This document shows positions 2,010 to 8,414 of a DNA stretch of 18,384 nucleotides, piece by piece. Origin of the DNA: a virus (Duplodnaviria; Heunggongvirae; Uroviricota; Caudoviricetes). A program made the translations under genes and the position numbers. The stretch is from the IMG/VR virus record IMGVR_UViG_2645727539_000015. One strand, 5' to 3'. The notes beneath the pieces were generated by a model that saw only the letters and a list, made by a program, of their open reading frames with translations, searched no databases and was not told where the DNA came from. Position 1 is the first letter of the stretch; each line of letters starts with the position of its first letter.

Positions 2010-2085
2010 GGCCCTTTAGCTCAGTGGTGAGAGCGAGCGACTCATAATCGCCAGGTCGCTGGTTCAAATCCAGCAAGGGCCACCA
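2010..2085 (+). tRNA. tRNA, anticodon CAU (Ile2-lysidine type or Met), 76 nt
   Basis: Manual cloverleaf: acceptor GGCCCTT/AAGGGCC, D-stem GCTC/GAGC, anticodon loop CTCATAA, T-arm GCTGG-TTCAAAT-CCAGC, encoded CCA. One A-C mismatch at the top of the anticodon stem. Confidence 0.85.
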
Positions 2086-2092
2086 TCACATA

Positions 2093-2169
2093 CCGCCATT
2101 AGCTCATCGGGATAGAGCGCCAGCCTTCGAAGCTGGTTGCGCGGGGTTCGAGACCTCGATGGCGGTCCA
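2093..2169 (+). tRNA. tRNA-Arg, anticodon UCG, 77 nt
   Basis: Acceptor CCGCCAT/ATGGCGG, D-stem GCTC/GAGC, anticodon stem CCAGC/GCTGG with loop CTTCGAA, T-arm CGGGG-TTCGAGA-CCTCG (one G-U pair), encoded CCA. Confidence 0.8.
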
Positions 2170-2182
2170 TTATCCGTACCCT

Positions 2183-2259
2183 GCGTTGTTAGCTCAGCCG
2201 GACAGAGCAATTGCCTTCTAAGCAATCGGTCACTGGTTCGAATCCAGTACAACGCGCCA
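2183..2259 (+). tRNA. tRNA-Arg, anticodon UCU (rare AGA/AGG codons), 77 nt
   Basis: Acceptor GCGTTGT/ACAACGC, D-stem GCTC/GAGC, anticodon stem ATTGC/GCAAT with loop CTTCTAA, T-arm ACTGG-TTCGAAT-CCAGT, encoded CCA. Confidence 0.85.
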
Positions 2260-2296: not shown

Positions 2297-2428
2297 GTAT
2301 CCGCGCCACGCCCGGCGCATATCAACCACAGAGCCTTTCGGGGGTGAGCTTACGGAGTGGTCAGTGTGACTTTCTCTGTGGGCAGATCGCTCCCGGGCGT
2401 TGGCTCACCCACCCAAAGGAACGTCACG

Positions 2429-2860
2429 ATGTTTGGAATCTTCAAAAAGAAAACCCGCAGAGCGGCAGCGGAAATTAAAAAGTTTGAAAAACGCGATCTG
2501 GCCCAGGCGGTGATTAACGCCGCATACCTGGTGGCTTATGCCGATGGTGAATGTGAGGCTTCCGAGAAAGCGAAGATCGAACAGGTATTACGTAACCAGC
2601 CCGCCTTGTCCGCGTTTACGTCAGAAATTAATGCGATTGGCGCAACCATCACTGGTCAGCTTGACACCAACTTTAAAATTGGTCGTCGTGCGGCGTTACG
2701 TGAGATCGAGGATGTGAAACACGATATGCGAGAAGCGGAAGATGTGCTGGATGTGGCGGTGGCCATTGCGGAATCAGATGGCGAAATTGAGCCTGAAGAG
2801 CGCAAGGTGCTGGAAGAGATAGCCGGTGTTCTGGGCCTTCGTCTGGAGAATCACCTGTGA
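2429..2860 (+). CDS. TerB-like (tellurite-resistance TerB domain family) protein, 143 aa
   Basis: ATG 2429 with AAAGGA 6-7 nt upstream. Two copies of the TerB-type signature hydrophobic-A-x-A-D/S-G-E (AYLVAYADGECEASE and VAIAESDGEIEPEE) in a helical, acidic protein. The track ORF start at 2357 has no RBS. Confidence 0.6.
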   Translation: MFGIFKKKTRRAAAEIKKFEKRDLAQAVINAAYLVAYADGECEASEKAKIEQVLRNQPALSAFTSEINAIGATITGQLDTNFKIGRRAALREIEDVKHDMREAEDVLDVAVAIAESDGEIEPEERKVLEEIAGVLGLRLENHL

Positions 2861-3021: not shown

Positions 3022-3263
3022 CAGGGTATCAGTTAGCCGGCGAAATTTTTAAATACCTCACAATTCAGCAAGTTTATGATTGTCTGGCTGACTGCGAATT
3101 TGTTAAAAATCGCGTCGCATGGTGAATCCCCCTCAGCGGCGGGGCATATCAGTACAGGTGTTTTCGTTTAGCCTTATCCTTTCTGTGCGGGTTCAGGTAC
3201 TGATACTGAACTCACCGGGAGGCACCCGGCACCATGCAGTATACAGAGATTAGGCATATCACC

Positions 3264-3289
3264 AGCCCCCTCTTCGGAGGGGGCTTTTT
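3264..3289 (+). terminator. rho-independent terminator (9-bp stem, UUCG tetraloop, T5)
   Basis: AGCCCCCTC-TTCG-GAGGGGGCT followed by TTTTT 3285-3289. Confidence 0.6.
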
Positions 3290-3386
3290 ACATGCAAAAA
3301 AAGCCCGCGTAGGGGGCGGGCGGTAAGAAATAAAACAAAACGTGAAGAAAATTATTCAGCTATTGGATAATACCTGAGGATTATGA

Positions 3387-3418
3387 GGCTGCGCAACTGC
3401 GCGGCCTTTTTCGTTTTT
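3387..3418 (+). terminator. rho-independent terminator (8-bp GC stem, loop AACT, T5-CG-T5)
   Basis: GGCTGCGC-AACT-GCGCGGCC (one G-U) followed by TTTTTCGTTTTT, about 80 nt upstream of the esterase start. Confidence 0.6.
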
Positions 3419-3497: not shown

Positions 3498-5411
3498 ATG
3501 GCATTTAAACATTATGATGTGGTCAGGGCTGCGTCGCCTTCAGACCTTGCGGAGCGACTGACACAAAAACTGAAGGAAGGCTGGCAGCCGTTTGGCAGCC
3601 CGGTCGCCATTACCCCTTATACCCTGATGCAGGCGATTGCCGCAGAAGGGGATGTCACCACGCCTGTCGTGGTGACACCGGAGGAAGGCGGTGCGGTGGT
3701 GAGCGATCCGACCCGTGAGCCTGAATATTACTATGTGCTGGTCACCGCAGGTCAGTCCAACAATATGGCAACCGGCGAAGGTATGCCCCTGCCTGACAGC
3801 TACGACCGTCCCGATCCACGCATTAAGCAGCTGGCCCGCCGCAGTGTGGTCCGACCGGGTGGTGCTGCCTGTAAATACAACGATGTGATTGAGGCCGATC
3901 ACTGTCTCCATGACGTTGAAGACATGAGTGCCAAAAATCACCCCAACGCGGACCTTTCCCGTGGTCAGTATGGTTGTGTCGGGCACGGCCTGCATATTGC
4001 CAAACGTCTTCTGCCCTATATTCCGGTTAATGCGGGGATCCTGATTGTGCCGTGCAGTCGTGGTGGCTCTGCGTTTACCGATCGTGATGAGGGTACCTAT
4101 AACCCGGAGACGGGGGCAACAGCGGATTCCTCCCGCTGGGGTGTGGGTAAACCGTTGTACATGGATTTAATTGCCCGCACGAAGGCGGCCCTTGAAAAGA
4201 ATCCGAAAAACGTCCTGCTGGCCGTGTACTGGATGCAGGGCGAGGGTGACTGTATGTCTTCAGGTTACACGGGGCATCCGGCGTTGTTTACGGCCATGGT
4301 GAAACAGTTCCGTACCGATCTAGCCGCGTATGCCGGTCAGTGCCTGGGCGGCGATGCGGCCCGTGTACCCTGGGTATGTGGTGACACCACCTTCTGGTGG
4401 AAGCAACAGTACCCGACACAATACAGCCTGGTTTATGGCGCGTACCGTAAAAACAGTGAGCCGAATGTGCATTTTGTCGAACTCATGAAGGATGAGACCG
4501 GTGCGAATGTTCCGACCAATAACCCGGCAGAAGATCCGGATGTGCCGGAAGCAAATTATTACGGTGCAGCATCACGCACGGCGGGTAACTGGACGAACCC
4601 GACACGCGCCATGCATTTCAGTTCCTGGGCCCGTCGCGGCATCCTGCCGGACCGTATAGCCACCGCAATCCTGACCCATGCAGGGCGTAACGGACCGTTC
4701 CTTGCCGGTGGAGATATAACGGAAAACTATCCGGAACCGGCAAAACCGAAGAGTAACGTTACCACCCTGTACAGCGGTGCAGAAAGTGAAGGTGCTTATG
4801 CCGAACAGGGCTGGACGCTGAGCGAAGGTAAGGCGGAAGTGGTACAGGATGAAAGCAGTGCTTCCGGACGGGCGCTGAAACTGAGCCAGGATGAAGCAAT
4901 GAACCTGAAGCTGACCCGTGAAGTGGCAAATGCGGCGGAACTGCTGAAAAACGGCGGTAAAATTACCTGTCGTTTTAAAATACCGGGAAGTGCGAACGGA
5001 AAACAGATAGCCCTGGCGATGTATCTGCAGCTGAAGGAAAGCGATATCCCTGAAGGTGTGGAATTTGCCAATAAGGCGGACGGTACCCATCCGTTCCTGG
5101 TGGCGTTCTATCTGCAGACAGAAACGGATGGCAAACTCAGTCTGATGCACAATGGTGCAGCGCAGACGCGTGTTGCGGGATACGGTACGCTGAACAGTGA
5201 ATGGCACACACTGGAGCTGGTATATCCGGGAGGAGGCCAGAACACGGTGACGCCGTATGTTGATACGGTAAAAGCTCCGACCACACAGCTGTCCTGGTTT
5301 AAATATGAAGGACAGGAGAACACGCTTATTCTGACGGATGCGTCGAATACAGCCACGTATGAAACGTGGATTGACGCGCTGACAGTGGAAGTAAACAGTC
5401 CGGCAGCCTGA
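3498..5411 (+). CDS. nanS-p: prophage NanS-p-type sialate (9-O-acetyl-Neu5Ac) O-acetylesterase, 637 aa
   Basis: ATG 3498 with GGGAGGA 5 nt upstream. N-terminus MAFKHYDVVRAASPSDLAERL is DUF1737-like, followed by a sialate-O-acetylesterase/SGNH-type region (YYYVLVTAGQSNNMATGEG) and a C-terminal domain. The position after the tRNA triplet matches the large esterase ORF of Stx-converting phages as I recall it. Confidence 0.85.
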   Translation: MAFKHYDVVRAASPSDLAERLTQKLKEGWQPFGSPVAITPYTLMQAIAAEGDVTTPVVVTPEEGGAVVSDPTREPEYYYVLVTAGQSNNMATGEGMPLPDSYDRPDPRIKQLARRSVVRPGGAACKYNDVIEADHCLHDVEDMSAKNHPNADLSRGQYGCVGHGLHIAKRLLPYIPVNAGILIVPCSRGGSAFTDRDEGTYNPETGATADSSRWGVGKPLYMDLIARTKAALEKNPKNVLLAVYWMQGEGDCMSSGYTGHPALFTAMVKQFRTDLAAYAGQCLGGDAARVPWVCGDTTFWWKQQYPTQYSLVYGAYRKNSEPNVHFVELMKDETGANVPTNNPAEDPDVPEANYYGAASRTAGNWTNPTRAMHFSSWARRGILPDRIATAILTHAGRNGPFLAGGDITENYPEPAKPKSNVTTLYSGAESEGAYAEQGWTLSEGKAEVVQDESSASGRALKLSQDEAMNLKLTREVANAAELLKNGGKITCRFKIPGSANGKQIALAMYLQLKESDIPEGVEFANKADGTHPFLVAFYLQTETDGKLSLMHNGAAQTRVAGYGTLNSEWHTLELVYPGGGQNTVTPYVDTVKAPTTQLSWFKYEGQENTLILTDASNTATYETWIDALTVEVNSPAA

Positions 5412-5528
5412 CGGTAAGCAAAAAAAAGCCCCTCCGCCATGCGGAGGGGAAGAAGTTAACCATCAAACGAATATCTATGGAATTTGCATTCTGACGTTTT
5501 TCATCATTATGCACAATACGGTGGAACG

Positions 5529-5693: not shown

Positions 5694-5718
5694 CCTTTCC
5701 CGTAAACGAGAAAATCTC

Positions 5719-5952
5719 ATGAGTGATATTAATAAACTGGTCACTGCAGAAGCAGTGAAGGATGCGCTGCGCTCTGAAGAAGTGAGCAGCGTCCTGAAAC
5801 AAAAAATTCGTGCAACCTTTGAGTCACAGATAGATGCGGAGGTGGATGCGATTCTGGCAGAGCTGACAGGTGCGCCAGCTGAAGCGTCAGGGGGCTTGCC
5901 TGAGCCGGAACAACCGGCAGAAACGGCGGCTGACCCATTTATGCCTCAGTAA
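5719..5952 (+). CDS. hypothetical acidic small protein (77 aa)
   Basis: ATG 5719 inside track ORF 5575..5952; hydrophilic, Glu/Asp/Ala-rich; compact spacing with neighbouring genes. Function unknown. Confidence 0.4.
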
Positions 5953-6032
5953 GGGGTTATATGCAGGTCACCGGTCAGGAGGCGGGTGACCCTGTTGTTT
6001 CTGCGGACTTCCGTCAGTCGGGAGGCGAGGGC

Positions 6033-6248
6033 ATGTATCAGATGGAAAAAATAGCAACGGGTGTGTCGTACAGCACATCAGCGGCGGGGACGGGATACTG
6101 GTTGTTTCAGATACTGGATAATGTCACGCCCTCACAGTGGACGGCTATTGGAGTGCTGGGGAGTCTGTTTTTTGGTTTGCTGACATACCTCACCAATCTG
6201 TATTTCAAAATCAGAGAGGACCGGCGTAAGGCAGCCCGGGGAGAGTGA
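6033..6248 (+). CDS. S: pinholin (phage 21 S21-like class II holin) with dual-start motif MYQMEK
   Basis: [23 protein letters not shown]...[22 protein letters not shown] closely matches the phage 21 pinholin as I recall it. GGAGG sits 7 nt before ATG 6033 and a second ATG at 6042 gives the antiholin/holin pair. The track ORF start at 5961 is an in-frame leader. Confidence 0.9.
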
Positions 6249-6252
6249 GACG

Positions 6253-6786
6253 GTGAGTCAGAAAGTCCGTTATGGTTTATCGGCTGCGGTTCTGGCGCTG
6301 ATTGCCGCAGGTGCTTCTGCGCCTGACATTCTTGACCAGTTTCTGGATGAAAAGGAAGGTAACCACACCACGGCATACCGTGATGGTGCGGGTATCTGGA
6401 CCATCTGCCGTGGTGCCATTCTGGTGGATGGTAAACCTGTTGTTCCGGGGATGAAGTTGTCGAAGGAAAAATGCGACCAGGTTAATGGCATTGAACGTGA
6501 TAAGGCGCTGGCATGGGTGGAGAAAAACATCAGAGTGCCACTGACTGAACCCCAGAAAGCGGGGATCGCGTCATTCTGCCCGTACAACATTGGCCCCGGT
6601 AAGTGTTTTCCGTCGACGTTTTATAAACGAATTAATGCAGGTGATCGAAAAGGTGCCTGCGAAGCGATTCGCTGGTGGATTAAGGACGGTGGCAGAGACT
6701 GCCGTATCCGCTCAAACAACTGCTACGGTCAGGTATCCCGTCGTGACCAGGAAAGTGCGCTGGCGTGCTGGGGCATCGACAGATAG
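6253..6786 (+). CDS. R: SAR (signal-anchor-release) endolysin, T4-lysozyme-like
   Basis: GTG start 4 nt after the holin stop; N-terminal Gly/Ala-rich weak TM segment YGLSAAVLALIAAGASA; catalytic E/D/T spacing (EGNH..RDGAG..WTICRG) typical of the family and of pinholin partners. Confidence 0.85.
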   Translation: MSQKVRYGLSAAVLALIAAGASAPDILDQFLDEKEGNHTTAYRDGAGIWTICRGAILVDGKPVVPGMKLSKEKCDQVNGIERDKALAWVEKNIRVPLTEPQKAGIASFCPYNIGPGKCFPSTFYKRINAGDRKGACEAIRWWIKDGGRDCRIRSNNCYGQVSRRDQESALACWGIDR

Positions 6787-7083
6787 CAGAATATTTTGCT
6801 GAAAAATAACGTTTACTCACGCGGACGGATAACACGAAATCCTGCGAACTGGCAAAATGTAAGTGGATAAAGTCAAAACAGTTGTTTAACACTCAGGCAC
6901 TGTAATGGTGCCTTTGTCATTTCTGCGCTTCGCACAAGCGTAAATAAACCAAAGAACCTTTCAGGATGAGCCCTGGTGGATAACCGGCAGTGGTCTGGTT
7001 AACCCTCTTTGGGCTGGTTATTCCTGTGCGCAGGGTTCATCACTAAAAGGAATCAACCATGAAAGAGATGATTTCTGTCGATC

Positions 7084-7686
7084 ATGACACCTCATGAACC
7101 GCGTAAGTTCCTTGCAAAAATTGAGGACGAACTTGAGCTTGAGGTAACCTGGAAAAAATTCCGGTTAAACAATAACCAGACAAGAACGGCATACTATGAT
7201 CTGGATTTTGACCAGATGATGCTCGTTGGCATGAGGGAGTCAAAGGCCGTTCGTCGTTCTGTGCTGGCAAGACTCAAAGCGATGCATGGTATTCAGATCC
7301 CCCGGACTTTACCTGAGGCGTTGCGATTTGCGGCAAAACTGGCAGAACAGAAAGCAGAGCTGGAAAATCAACTGGCAATAGCAGCGCCGAAGGCTGAATT
7401 TGTTGATAACTATGTTGAAGCATCTGGTCTGATGGGATTCCGGGAAGTTGCTAAGTTATTCGGTATCAAAGAAACCGATTTCCGGCTGTTTTTGTTGGAG
7501 AACGGAATAATGTATCGCCTCGCTGGAAAAATGACGCATTACTCGCATCACCTGGATGCGGGGCGGTTTAGCGTGAAAACGGGCGAGGCGGGCAATGGTC
7601 ATGCTTTTACGCAGGTTAAATTCACCCCAAAAGGTGTTCAGTGGATTGCTGGTCTGTTTGCTGCATGGAGAGCTACCGCAGCATGA
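7084..7686 (+). CDS. phage antirepressor-like protein (KilAC/Ant C-terminal domain), possibly N-terminally truncated
   Basis: C-terminal half (AKLFGIKETDFRLFLLENGIMY...FTPKGVQWIAGLF) fits the KilAC pattern. No SD before ATG 7084, whereas an SD-equipped ATG at 7058 opens a 12-codon ORF in another frame. Confidence 0.5.
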   Translation: MTPHEPRKFLAKIEDELELEVTWKKFRLNNNQTRTAYYDLDFDQMMLVGMRESKAVRRSVLARLKAMHGIQIPRTLPEALRFAAKLAEQKAELENQLAIAAPKAEFVDNYVEASGLMGFREVAKLFGIKETDFRLFLLENGIMYRLAGKMTHYSHHLDAGRFSVKTGEAGNGHAFTQVKFTPKGVQWIAGLFAAWRATAA

Positions 7687-7780: not shown

Positions 7781-7912
7781 ATGTCAGACAAACTCATAAT
7801 GCTGGCGAAGGGCCTTTGTATAATCGTCGGTATTTCATTTTCACTAATGCTGGTTGCTCTTTTTCTTTCCCTGGGCTGGATGATGTTGTCTTCGTCGGGG
7901 ATGCTGGGGTGA
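7781..7912 (+). CDS. possible tiny membrane peptide (43 aa)
   Basis: ATG 7781 with AAGGGG 5 nt upstream; [43 protein letters not shown]; stop is followed directly by the Rz RBS. Confidence 0.3.
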
Positions 7913-7919
7913 GGGGGAT

Positions 7920-8414
7920 ATGAACCGCGTTCTGTGTGTGGTCATCATTGCCCTGCTGGTGGCCTGTGGTGCGCTTAGTCTGGGGCTGAATCATTACCGC
8001 GATAACGCCATTACCTACAAAGCGCAGCGCGATAAAAAAGTCAGTGAGCTGAAACTGGCAAACGCAACCATTACTGATATGCAGCAGCGCCAGCGTGATG
8101 TTGCTGTGCTCGATGCAAAATACTCGAGGGAATTAGCCGATGCGAGAGCTGAAAATGAAACTCTGCGTGCTGATGTTGCCGCTGGTCGTAAGCGCCTGCG
8201 GATCAACGCCACCTGCTCAGGTACCGTGCGTGAAGCCACCGGCACCTCCGGCGTGGATAATGCAACCGGCCCCCGATTGGCAGACACCGCTGAACGGGAT
8301 TATTTCATCCTCAGAGAACGGTTGATGACAATGCAGAAGCAGCTGGAAGGGGCGCAGGAATATATCCGCACTCAGTGCACTAAGCTGGCTTTTTATTATC
8401 CGGAGGATACATGA
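7920..8414 (+). CDS. Rz: i-spanin Rz
   Basis: N-terminal TM then [45 protein letters not shown]...[22 protein letters not shown], very close to lambda Rz; GAGGGGG SD. Confidence 0.85.
8140..8325 (+). CDS. Rz1: o-spanin Rz1 lipoprotein, embedded in the +1 frame of Rz
   Basis: [20 protein letters not shown] lipobox followed by proline-rich [32 protein letters not shown], lambda Rz1-like; lies wholly inside Rz. Confidence 0.8.

Follow-up and report, generated by a model that had tools for sequence, protein, structure and literature searches.

The lysis region of a Stx-phage-like prophage

The 18,384-nucleotide stretch of DNA analysed here (the window) carries, at positions 5961-6786, an ordinary set of lysis genes from a lambdoid prophage that resembles Stx phages, encoding a presumed small-hole holin (S) and a lysozyme that would be membrane-tethered (R) (Table 1). 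The cassette type is already known, and an annotation as class II holin and lysozyme pre-exists. By direct reading of the sequence and its ORF list, we recovered every sequence item that had been described for this region in the original prediction, namely a dual ATG, a lysozyme ORF, an inverted repeat, a U-rich run and a repeated Shine-Dalgarno (SD)-like 11-mer. Upstream accessory genes in the window include a nanS-p-like gene, DUF1378 and DUF826, in the place where relatives carry stx, and a TerB-domain ORF follows the tRNAs. No stx genes were found in the window, and a three-frame read of its first 1 kb revealed no recognisable Q gene or late promoter. Scanning the window located other plus-strand terminator-like sites of the late region at 746, 2273, 3264, 3385 and 6895. 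An sRNA of the STnc100 family lies at 3087-3295. The full 5700-6800 stretch was matched by one complete E. coli genome only, that of UTAK-6 (96.9%), and megablast-level similarity to Stx phages starts only at 6019 (~89% DNA identity onward).

Table 1. Positions of the genes and leader elements of the lysis region, numbered from the first base of the window.
Feature	Position	Strand	Description
DUF826-family gene, 77 aa	5719-5952	+	PF05696, 80 bits; stop TAA 5950-5952; annotated as DUF826 protein in E. coli UTAK-6
Hairpin A	5964-5994	+	5' arm CAGGTCACC (5964-5972), 12-nt loop (5973-5984), 3' arm GGTGACCCTG (5985-5994), one bulged C
SD-like copy GTCAGGAGGCG in hairpin A loop	5974-5984	+	AGGAGG 5977-5982; lineage-specific
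Interrupted U-rich tail TTGTTTCTG	5995-6003	+	From sequence; 6 T in 10 bases after the aligned stem (7-8 in most relatives)
Small stem-loop over SD	6008-6024	+	CTTCCG 6008-6013, loop TCAGT, CGGGAG 6019-6024; in centroid structure
Two purine runs	6020-6031	+	GGGAGG 6020-6025, 7 nt before ATG1; GAGGG 6027-6031, 10 nt before ATG2
Holin S, class II / phage 21 S family	6033-6248	+	PF04971, 109.6 bits; 71 aa from ATG 6033, 68 aa from ATG 6042
Endolysin R, 177 aa, GTG start	6253-6786	+	PF00959, 84.8 bits; weakly hydrophobic N-terminal segment, residues 7-23 (6271-6321)
Terminator-like hairpin with T-rich tail, 3' of R	6895-6913	+	Consensus scan
ANT/KilAC-domain ORF between R and Rz	7084-7686	+	PF03374, 91.8 bits; insertion as in Stx phages
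Rz (i-spanin)	7920-8414	+	PF03245, 167 bits
Rz1 (o-spanin), embedded in Rz	8140-8325	+	PF06085, 77 bits

The holin keeps two start codons with no basic residue between them

In the mechanical list, the holin is part of a 95-aa ORF (5961-6248), within which the 71-aa protein begins at ATG 6033 with the N-terminus MYQMEK. The holin exceeded the PF04971 cut-off (26 bits; Table 1) and also matched holin PHROGs, and its UTAK-6 orthologue is a class II holin in RefSeq. Identity to S21 was 73% across all 71 residues (the S21 query sequence matched phage phi458 at 100%). Residues 7-24 are 67% Gly/Ala/Ser/Thr, equal to the proportion in S21, and the most hydrophobic stretch spans residues 39-53. Reading the sequence of the second transmembrane domain (TMD), we found G40, S44 and G48, which we take to be the G40xxxS44xxxG48 motif face that is important in S21. 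S is therefore best described as a two-TMD holin of the phage 21 family, which presumably forms pinholes. Such holes measure about 2 nm and collapse the membrane potential while letting no cytoplasmic endolysin out. An N-terminally extended, 95-aa holin starting at ATG 5961 was rejected: that ATG is missing in other leader types, the in-frame upstream peptides are unrelated between leader types, and RefSeq uses the 71-aa form. The 95-aa ORF is called in several public assemblies.

The two in-frame ATGs of the predicted dual start (6033 and 6042) proved to be conserved family-wide, as nearly all holin relatives share the pattern M-x-x-M-[D/E]-K with ATGs three codons apart. The codons between the two Met residues vary in the family (KS, YR, LR, HR, YQ, DQ, NQ). 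A basic residue is present there in the MKS, MYR, MLR, MHR and MK types and absent in all x-Q types (MYQ, MDQ, MNQ, MFQ, MHQ and MSQ, one of them acidic). The extension of the window holin is Met-Tyr-Gln and not Met-Lys-Ser, therefore the longer product gains no added basic side chain. A literature search for 'MYQMEK' returned no paper, and no experimental data on the MYQMEK allele class were found.

We infer that both S starts are used; in a classical holin/antiholin device the longer product would be inhibitory. A competing explanation, which we hold to be possible but not likely, is that only one start codon is used, the dual start being no holin/antiholin device in MYQ alleles and Met4 or ATG1 being conserved for another reason. 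The Tyr-Gln between the Met residues, without Lys or Arg, is what this explanation expects, as is the whole set of x-Q relatives with its acidic member: reviews ascribe antiholin action in S21 71 and lambda S107 to the positive charge added by a basic residue between the starts (PMC9636201, PMC6116005), and the time at which TMD1 flips depends on the charge that S21 68 carries at its N-terminus (bioRxiv 10.1101/2021.04.20.440580). Use of a single start sits poorly, however, with the retention of both ATGs in nearly all family members despite the variable codons between them, and with a purine run at a workable distance from each ATG; in addition, loss of the formyl group can give the N-terminal Met a positive charge of its own, a finding reported for lambda S107 (PMC6116005). 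The MYQMEK-type clade, which includes Stx-phage holins, thus keeps both starts without the basic residue needed by the textbook antiholin mechanism, and the presence or absence of an antiholin in these phages bears on the timing of lysis and toxin release.

The endolysin has an N-terminus of SAR-type composition

R displays the catalytic pattern Glu-8 residues-Asp-5 residues-Thr, and alignment with an R21-like enzyme (30% identity) places identical residues opposite its E35, D44 and T50, in what we take to be the triad numbering of R21. Its relatives in the PDB are 3hde (E = 2e-16), 3hdf and 4zpu. At the N-terminus, K4 and R6 are followed by YGLSAAVLALIAAGASA, and residues 7-24 are 61% Gly/Ala/Ser/Thr, equal to the R21-like enzyme. 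Of eight cysteines in R (four in the R21-like enzyme), none lies in the N-terminal segment. The sequence A-S-A is followed by Pro24, an arrangement that disfavours signal peptidase I; A-G-A followed by S offers an alternative signal-peptidase site, so that cleavage is possible judging by sequence. The predicted pairing of the holin with a signal-anchor-release (SAR) endolysin agrees with this SAR-type composition, and R would be exported by Sec, tethered by its uncleaved N-terminal segment and freed from the membrane upon depolarisation. Both the pinholin and the SAR behaviour are predictions from homology and composition.

The claim that a dual start and a SAR endolysin together diagnose pinholin lysis was overstated, since a dual start is not diagnostic and the basic residue between the Met residues is missing. 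Similarly, the assignment to a phage-21-type cassette was borne out for the holin, by PF04971 and the identity to S21, but not strictly for the remainder, as R is only 30% identical to the R21-like enzyme and the module is of the Stx-phage type, with ANT between R and Rz.

A hairpin under structural selection precedes S

The predicted 7-bp hairpin with a 12-nt loop and a U-rich run was confirmed in the S leader (GGTCACC 5966-5972 / GGTGACC 5985-5991), with CTGTTGTTTCTG at 5992-6003, just 3' of the core repeat. The stem of this element, hairpin A, is 10 bp long when a single bulged C is allowed, and its fold reaches -19.7 kcal/mol (z = -2.36; 3/200 shuffles as good) versus -13.1 on the minus strand. 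Perfect 7-bp inverted repeats with loops of 3-12 nt number 29 in the window versus 12.2 +/- 4.1 in shuffles, and the 7-bp stem by itself is within chance and unremarkable. Hairpin A counts as more than chance because of comparative evidence.

Conservation was the point on which the original prediction had allowed that its leader hairpin might fail, and a hairpin was present at the equivalent position in 81 of 82 MYQMEK-type loci (27 distinct leaders; the exception is L045), the stems differing by compensating changes and a T-run following in most cases. At least six different stem sequences occur among the homologues. In alignment A2, helix 1 was 94.8% paired and 5 of its 9 pairs change on both sides, and the whole structure, 96.9% paired in register, fell to 41-58% in a control in which partners were slid by 1-3 columns. 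With 23 G.U cells, pairing was 94.8% on the plus strand versus 77.8% on the minus strand, an asymmetry indicating that the structure is formed by plus-strand RNA.

In most variants the hairpin runs into TTTTTTATTG or TTTTTCATG (7-8 T within 10 bases), and homologues have loops of 5-7 nt and positive d'Aubenton-Carafa-type scores in 9 stem types. One canonical variant, as an example, reads AGCCATCAG...TTTTTT. Another common stem type, GGGGC..., likewise forms a strong hairpin although its U tract is poor, therefore selection may be for something besides or instead of termination. The element adjoins S regardless of the gene on its 5' side, which may be DUF826, a nanS-p-like gene or stx1B with a nanS-p remnant. 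Its occurrence in 81/82 loci, with compensating stems and next to any upstream gene, marks it as an element of the intrinsic-terminator type that is linked to S. At this position there is no hairpin in phage 21-type and Enterobacter-type leaders, which do have the dual ATG.

The window copy is a weak or borderline version, with its 12-nt loop and interrupted U tract, where intrinsic terminators typically have a loop of 3-8 nt and an unbroken U tract right behind the stem. Three inner loop pairs would leave 4 nt unpaired, and the tail reads UUGUUUCUG; on a d'Aubenton-Carafa-type score the copy reaches about -16, below threshold. A consensus terminator scanner made no call for hairpin A, the loop being too long; the scanner was uninformative here, as it also skipped the Sakai homologue (internal mismatch) and the T-run hairpins 5' of phage 21-type S. 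The S leader matched no Rfam family, at a permissive threshold or at gathering scores, and a scan for sigma-70-like promoters between hairpin A and S found none.

A small stem pairs with the Shine-Dalgarno region

A second stem-loop, at 6008-6024, pairs with the SD itself and had been missed in the original prediction. Each of the two purine runs may be assigned to one start codon, in which case the stem would pair with the SD for ATG1, leave GAGGG free for ATG2 and thereby favour the 68-aa form. Among 15 MYQMEK-type leaders the SD stem is invariant and its loop variable, with no covariation, and other lineages carry their own stems over the SD (in alignment A3, bulges shift the register for column-wise covariation of this stem across lineages). 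Its energy (z = +0.38) is no more stable than that of shuffled sequence, and SD occlusion in 7 lineages was modestly above that of shuffles (combined p = 0.013). Longer leader folds give competing structures, in which the U-rich tail can pair with the SD region. If RNA structure controls start choice, the 6008-6024 stem is, with modest support, a better candidate than hairpin A.

The predicted recurrence of the SD context is real, as GTCRGGAGGCG occurs twice in the window (5974-5984 and 6017-6027; 0.04 matches expected by chance), but it is unconserved outside the lineage of the window. The copy in the hairpin A loop was found only in the window, in E. coli UTAK-6 and in ten contigs with an identical leader, and the loops of other relatives are unrelated, that of VT2-Sakai being TAAACAG. 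Loop copy and true SD have equal predicted pairing with the 16S 3' end (-10.3 kcal/mol). A 19-codon ORF 3' of the loop AGGAGG (TTG 5995 to TAG 6054) was rejected as lacking comparative support.

A weak terminator is the most likely role of hairpin A

Together with its U tract (5964-6003), hairpin A would be a conserved element of the rho-independent terminator type, ~40 nt 5' of S in this holin clade. We consider it most likely to be a weak transcription terminator that shields the lysis genes and not a start-codon switch. It would stop transcription entering from the upstream accessory genes, so that only RNA polymerase rendered terminator-resistant by Q could express the lethal lysis genes. 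Such Q-dependent read-through is an assumption taken over from relatives, because the window has no recognisable Q gene or late promoter. Intra-operon terminators are recognised in lambdoid late operons, where one proposed role is to stop transcription unmodified by the antiterminator, although their roles are uncertain (PMC8022706), and accessory 'moron' genes may have their own promoters and terminators (PMC8065619). The 'attenuation' that had been offered as an alternative role for the hairpin fits the terminator reading. A terminator-type hairpin on the 5' side of S is also in keeping with insulation of lethal lysis genes from accessory-gene transcription in lysogens, and in Stx phages such insulation would be relevant to the absence of lysis when toxin is expressed from a promoter of its own.

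Hairpin A could instead be mainly an RNA-stability or processing element, either the 3' stem-loop of a transcript or sRNA ending 5' of S or a protector of S mRNA, and we judge this improbable though worth weighing. It would account for compensatory changes that preserve the hairpin in types with a decayed U tract (window type, GGGGC type). Stx-type late regions also carry many Hfq-binding small RNAs in the interval from the late promoter to the lysis genes (PMC7873438), and the window contains the STnc100-family sRNA; yet the S leader lacks any Rfam match, most variants have the stem-plus-T-run anatomy of terminators, and a terminator also yields a stable 3' end, so that the two roles are compatible.

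Also considered was the proposal that the 5966-5991 hairpin works like sdi, as a leader structure choosing between the S start codons. In its favour, structural selection does act on this genuine hairpin, its loop in the window bears a copy of the SD region, and its U-rich tail can pair with the SD region in longer folds. However, 38 nt separate the end of the stem from ATG1 and about 25 nt separate it from the SD, which it does not overlap, and this makes a role in start choice unlikely. The SD region is also constant although the stem sequence changes freely, therefore hairpin A and the SD share no conserved, fixed interaction. A canonical, terminator-typical T-run is present in most homologues, the SD-like loop is limited to one lineage, and phage 21-type and Enterobacter-type leaders manage a dual ATG with no hairpin there. 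On these grounds the original prediction that the leader hairpin governs start choice was set aside, and we regard any such function as quite unlikely.

A variant confined to the lineage of the window is that the loop copy, gained by a handful of loop substitutions, acts as a ribosome standby or decoy or competes for the CUUCCG anti-SD segment, coupling the read-through hairpin to S translation level and ATG choice. This strikes us as very unlikely; if true, lysis timing would be set by the RNA leader and not by a classical positively charged antiholin. Finally, the inverted repeat might lack any RNA function, having arisen by chance or been left as a neutral scar by recombination where two modules meet. 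This would suit the commonness of 7-bp inverted repeats and the onset of megablast similarity to Stx phages only at 6019, but is extremely improbable and already disfavoured by covariation, given pairing maintained over at least six stem types with two-sided changes, G.U pairs tolerated on the plus strand only, and an element found in 81/82 loci whatever the upstream gene.

Taken as a whole, the explanation that we favour, with some confidence, is a Stx-type lysis module in which hairpin A is a terminator-type element and the SD stem, if RNA structure is involved at all, the likelier site of start control.

Comparison with known systems

Phage 21 S and the window S are both 71 aa long, with an M-x-x-M-[D/E]-K start, a Gly/Ala/Ser/Thr-rich first TMD and an identical basic C-terminus, and a small stem over the SD is common to both. 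They differ in their extensions (Met-Lys-Ser in S21, Met-Tyr-Gln in the window) and in setting, as the window S lies kilobases 3' of the tRNA block, behind accessory genes, whereas phi458 S begins 365 nt after the Q gene. R shares with R21 (3hde/3hdf), RrrD (4zpu) and P1 Lyz the lysozyme fold family, an aligned triad and a Gly/Ala/Ser-rich N-terminal TMD after basic residues; it departs from the R21-like enzyme in the low identity and doubled cysteine number given above.

In lambda S, the sdi stem-loop, a short stem that adjoins or covers the SD in a dual-start holin gene, could bias initiation between the starts, and Barenboim and colleagues reportedly described a stem-loop for S21 in 1999. 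In the window it is the 6008-6024 stem that occupies such a position, and the 5966-5991 hairpin lies elsewhere. With lambdoid late-operon terminators and tR', hairpin A shares a GC-rich stem and T-rich run on the transcribed strand of an operon read by antiterminated polymerase, although the window copy, a predicted element, is atypical in its 12-nt loop and interrupted U tract.

Stx phages such as VT2-Sakai and 933W have the same S-R-(ant)-Rz/Rz1 order (in VT2-Sakai, ant lies between R and Rz) and the same MYQMEK start, and they share the SD stem and a homologous hairpin with its T-rich tail. A pinholin and a SAR endolysin have been predicted for Stx phages (PMC8136144). The window differs from them in the stem of its hairpin, which is its own, in a longer loop bearing the SD-like 11-mer, in a weaker U tract and in carrying no stx.

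A hairpin best explained as a terminator-type element precedes the lysis genes

Hairpin A, a stem-loop between the DUF826 gene and the holin gene S, pairs GGTCACC (5966-5972) with GGTGACC (5985-5991) across a 12-nt loop, with CTGTTGTTTCTG next; if a single bulged C is allowed, the stem extends to 10 bp (5964-5972 / 5985-5994). The fold was predicted at -19.7 kcal/mol (z = -2.36; minus strand, -13.1). Considered alone, hairpin A was unremarkable; the window has 29 inverted repeats that pair perfectly over 7 bp around a loop of 3-12 nt, versus 12.2 +/- 4.1 in shuffles. With its 12-nt loop and the tail UUGUUUCUG, the window copy scored below the terminator threshold, drew no call from the scanner and appears to be a weak terminator version.

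We consider comparison among related sequences decisive for how hairpin A is read. A hairpin was found at the homologous position in all but one (L045) of 82 loci with the MYQMEK type of holin start (27 distinct leaders), with at least six stem types among the leaders (GGTCACC, GGCCATCAG, AGCCATCAG, GGGGCTGTCGG, GGACCATCGG and GGCTGTCAGTG). In a 15-sequence alignment the helix was 94.8% paired, 5/9 pairs changed on both sides, and the whole structure was 96.9% paired in register versus 41-58% with partners slid by 1-3 columns. Taking G.U cells into account (n = 23), pairing was 94.8% on the plus strand and 77.8% on the minus; since it works on the former and not the latter, the structure is that of plus-strand RNA. 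In most variants the bases that come next are TTTTTTATTG or TTTTTCATG, and most pass as terminators on a d'Aubenton-Carafa-type score. The element adjoins S with DUF826 upstream (the window, L002, L003, L028 and L047), with a nanS-p-like gene upstream (L005 and L066) or with stx1B and a nanS-p remnant upstream (L042), and a scan of the window found no promoter-like sites between hairpin A and S. Together, the comparative evidence, the terminator-like tails, the linkage to S and the lack of an intervening promoter favour reading hairpin A as an element of the rho-independent-terminator type that stays with the lysis genes on their 5' side. Such an element would block entry of non-Q-modified transcription into S and the endolysin gene R. 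Terminators inside lambdoid late operons have been described, with a possible role in stopping unmodified transcription (PMC8022706), and accessory 'moron' genes may carry their own promoters and terminators (PMC8065619).

A role in RNA stability or processing is a live alternative, because the window copy is weak as a terminator and, in the common GGGGC type, the hairpin stays strong and the U tract is poor. The original prediction had assigned the leader hairpin to start choice or attenuation; the structure itself is borne out by conservation with covariation, but sdi-like selection of the S start is disfavoured, since hairpin A stops 38 nt 5' of the first start codon (ATG1, 6033) and does not contact the Shine-Dalgarno sequence (SD), and since its stem sequence is free to vary while the SD region is constant. 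The best explanation for hairpin A is a putative insulator of the terminator type, not a device for start selection.

A separate predicted stem covers the holin SD

The SD 7 nt before ATG1 is predicted to pair in a 6-bp stem (CUUCCG, 6008-6013; CGGGAG, 6019-6024) that leaves GAGGG (6027-6031), 10 nt before the second start (ATG2), unpaired. Within the clade this SD stem was invariant and its loops variable. Other leaders cover the SD with their own stems: the phage 21 type with AUCCGU/GCGGA, the Enterobacter type with CACC-CGC/GCG-A-GGUG and L015 with CCGCC/GGCGG. With an energy z-score of +0.38 and a combined shuffle p of 0.013, support for the SD stem is modest. Barenboim et al. (1999) reportedly found that a stem-loop at the SD of the phage 21 holin gene affects the ratio of its two products. 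L051 has CGAGAG for CGGGAG at the SD, weakening both SD and stem. L045 has neither hairpin A nor the SD stem, its leader being replaced by unrelated sequence as far as the 5' arm of that stem, ~25 nt upstream of S. These natural variants could act as controls.

The recurring SD context of the original prediction was confirmed: the 11-mer GTCRGGAGGCG is present twice, at 5974-5984 and 6017-6027 (0.04 matches expected by chance). Compared with other loops in the aligned leaders, the loop AGGAGG is the product of point changes, and its predicted pairing with the 16S 3' end is as good as that of the true SD. Only the window's lineage, whose leader does not vary, has this SD-like loop, and a standby or decoy function is a low-probability speculation.

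The dual start is retained without a basic residue

We surveyed 23 genomic loci, 80 viral loci and 120 protein-cluster representatives for the dual start. M-x-x-M-[D/E]-K was almost universal, with the two codons between the Mets variable; the retention of both ATGs around a drifting spacer argues that each is important. One group has a basic residue between the Mets (MKS, MYR, MLR, MHR and MK types), and an x-Q group has none (MYQ, MDQ, MNQ, MFQ, MHQ and MSQ). The antiholin behaviour of the long phage 21 form (S21 71) and lambda S107 has been ascribed to an extra positively charged residue (PMC9636201), with the deformylated Met1 of S107 contributing too (PMC6116005), and in a mutational screen of the short form (S21 68) N-terminal charge set the timing of TMD1 translocation (bioRxiv 10.1101/2021.04.20.440580). 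The window allele and all Stx-phage alleles have two starts and lack the basic residue. Of the new observations, the most useful is that holins of the Stx-type clade retain two starts but lack the charge by which classical antiholins are defined; no paper in the literature searched contained the motif MYQMEK.

Several public assemblies call a 95-aa ORF from an upstream ATG (5961 in the window) instead of the 71-aa holin (protein P0002; loci L108-L117), and over-extended calls of 83-119 aa occur in other leader types. We rejected these extensions as annotation artefacts because they are unrelated between leader types.

The lysis genes lie in a Stx-phage-like late region

From domain, tRNA and Rfam matches, the window is late-region DNA of a lambdoid prophage resembling Stx phages.

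Features of the window in gene order
Feature	Coordinates	Strand	Remarks
DNA methylase			first in gene order
Three tRNAs	2010-2259		Met-type CAT, Arg TCG, Arg TCT
TerB-domain ORF	2357-2860		after tRNAs
STnc100-family sRNA	3087-3295	+	Rfam, 159.9 bits (gathering score 47)
Terminator-like hairpin	3264-3285	+	near STnc100
Terminator-like hairpin	3321-3303	-	near STnc100
Terminator-like hairpin	3385-3408	+	near STnc100
nanS-p-like esterase	3498-5411		
DUF1378 and DUF826 genes			between esterase and holin
Holin, then lysozyme (next two rows)			3' of DUF826
Mechanical ORF	5961-6248		contains ATG 6033 and in-frame ATG 6042 (M-Y-Q-M-E-K)
Endolysin (lysozyme) ORF	6253-6786		GTG start, 177 aa
ANT/KilAC ORF	7084-7686		between lysozyme and Rz/Rz1
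Rz/Rz1, then HNH, terminase, head genes			3' of ANT/KilAC ORF

Stx phages carry stx (stxAB) where the window has the TerB-domain ORF, and the layout at 2010-2860 is that of a Stx-phage late region minus the toxin genes. DNA matches to Stx phages (~89% identity) start only at 6019, and UTAK-6 was the single complete E. coli genome matching all of 5700-6800 (96.9%); its RefSeq features there are a DUF826 protein, a class II holin (71 aa) and a lysozyme.

The STnc100 match, with convergent terminators on its flanks, follows the TerB-like ORF and precedes the nanS-p-like gene. In EHEC lambdoid prophages, Hfq-binding sRNAs are described as dyads in the interval from the late promoter to the lysis genes (PMC7873438), and the STnc100 locus may be of this kind. 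The minus strand between the nanS-p-like gene and DUF1378 has a GC-rich hairpin of 9 perfect bp and then T8 (5429-5449; A8 precedes on the plus strand), which looks like a leftward-facing terminator within the rightward operon. A 12-codon ORF in another frame (ATG 7060, MKEMISVDHDTS, stop 7096-7098) precedes the ANT/KilAC ORF, a sign that the antirepressor-like gene may be frameshifted or truncated at its 5' end. Directly 5' of Rz, a 43-aa hydrophobic ORF (7781-7912, +; PHROG 4906, an unknown-function family, 72 bits) encodes a predicted small membrane protein within the lysis region.

The cassette is of Stx-phage type

Direct reading recovered every sequence feature of the original prediction (dual ATGs, endolysin ORF, inverted repeat with tail, repeated SD context), and its interpretation as a whole is partly supported. 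The proposed likeness to phage 21 held for the holin, which matched PF04971 ('Bacteriophage P21 holin S'; 109.6 bits) and the phage 21 holin S21 (73% identity, full length; the S21 query matched phage phi458 at 100%), shares the Gly/Ala/Ser/Thr richness of S21 TMD1 and keeps G40, S44 and G48. It held less well for the endolysin, which matched PF00959 and was 30% identical to an R21-like enzyme, with E35, D44 and T50 aligned; related solved structures include 3hde, 3hdf and 4zpu (RrrD). The endolysin N-terminus (K4, R6, then YGLSAAVLALIAAGASA, then Pro) resembles a SAR segment in composition. Its eight cysteines (residues 52, 74, 109, 118, 136, 150, 157 and 172; none in the N-terminal membrane segment), versus four in the R21-like enzyme, hint at periplasmic disulfide bonding or at regulation unlike that of R21 or P1 Lyz. 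The cassette is of a known kind, since a genomic survey predicted a SAR endolysin paired with a pinholin in ~99% of Stx phages (PMC8136144). As in the window, VT2-Sakai has ANT between R and Rz, and the cassette is of the Stx-phage type, not strictly that of phage 21.
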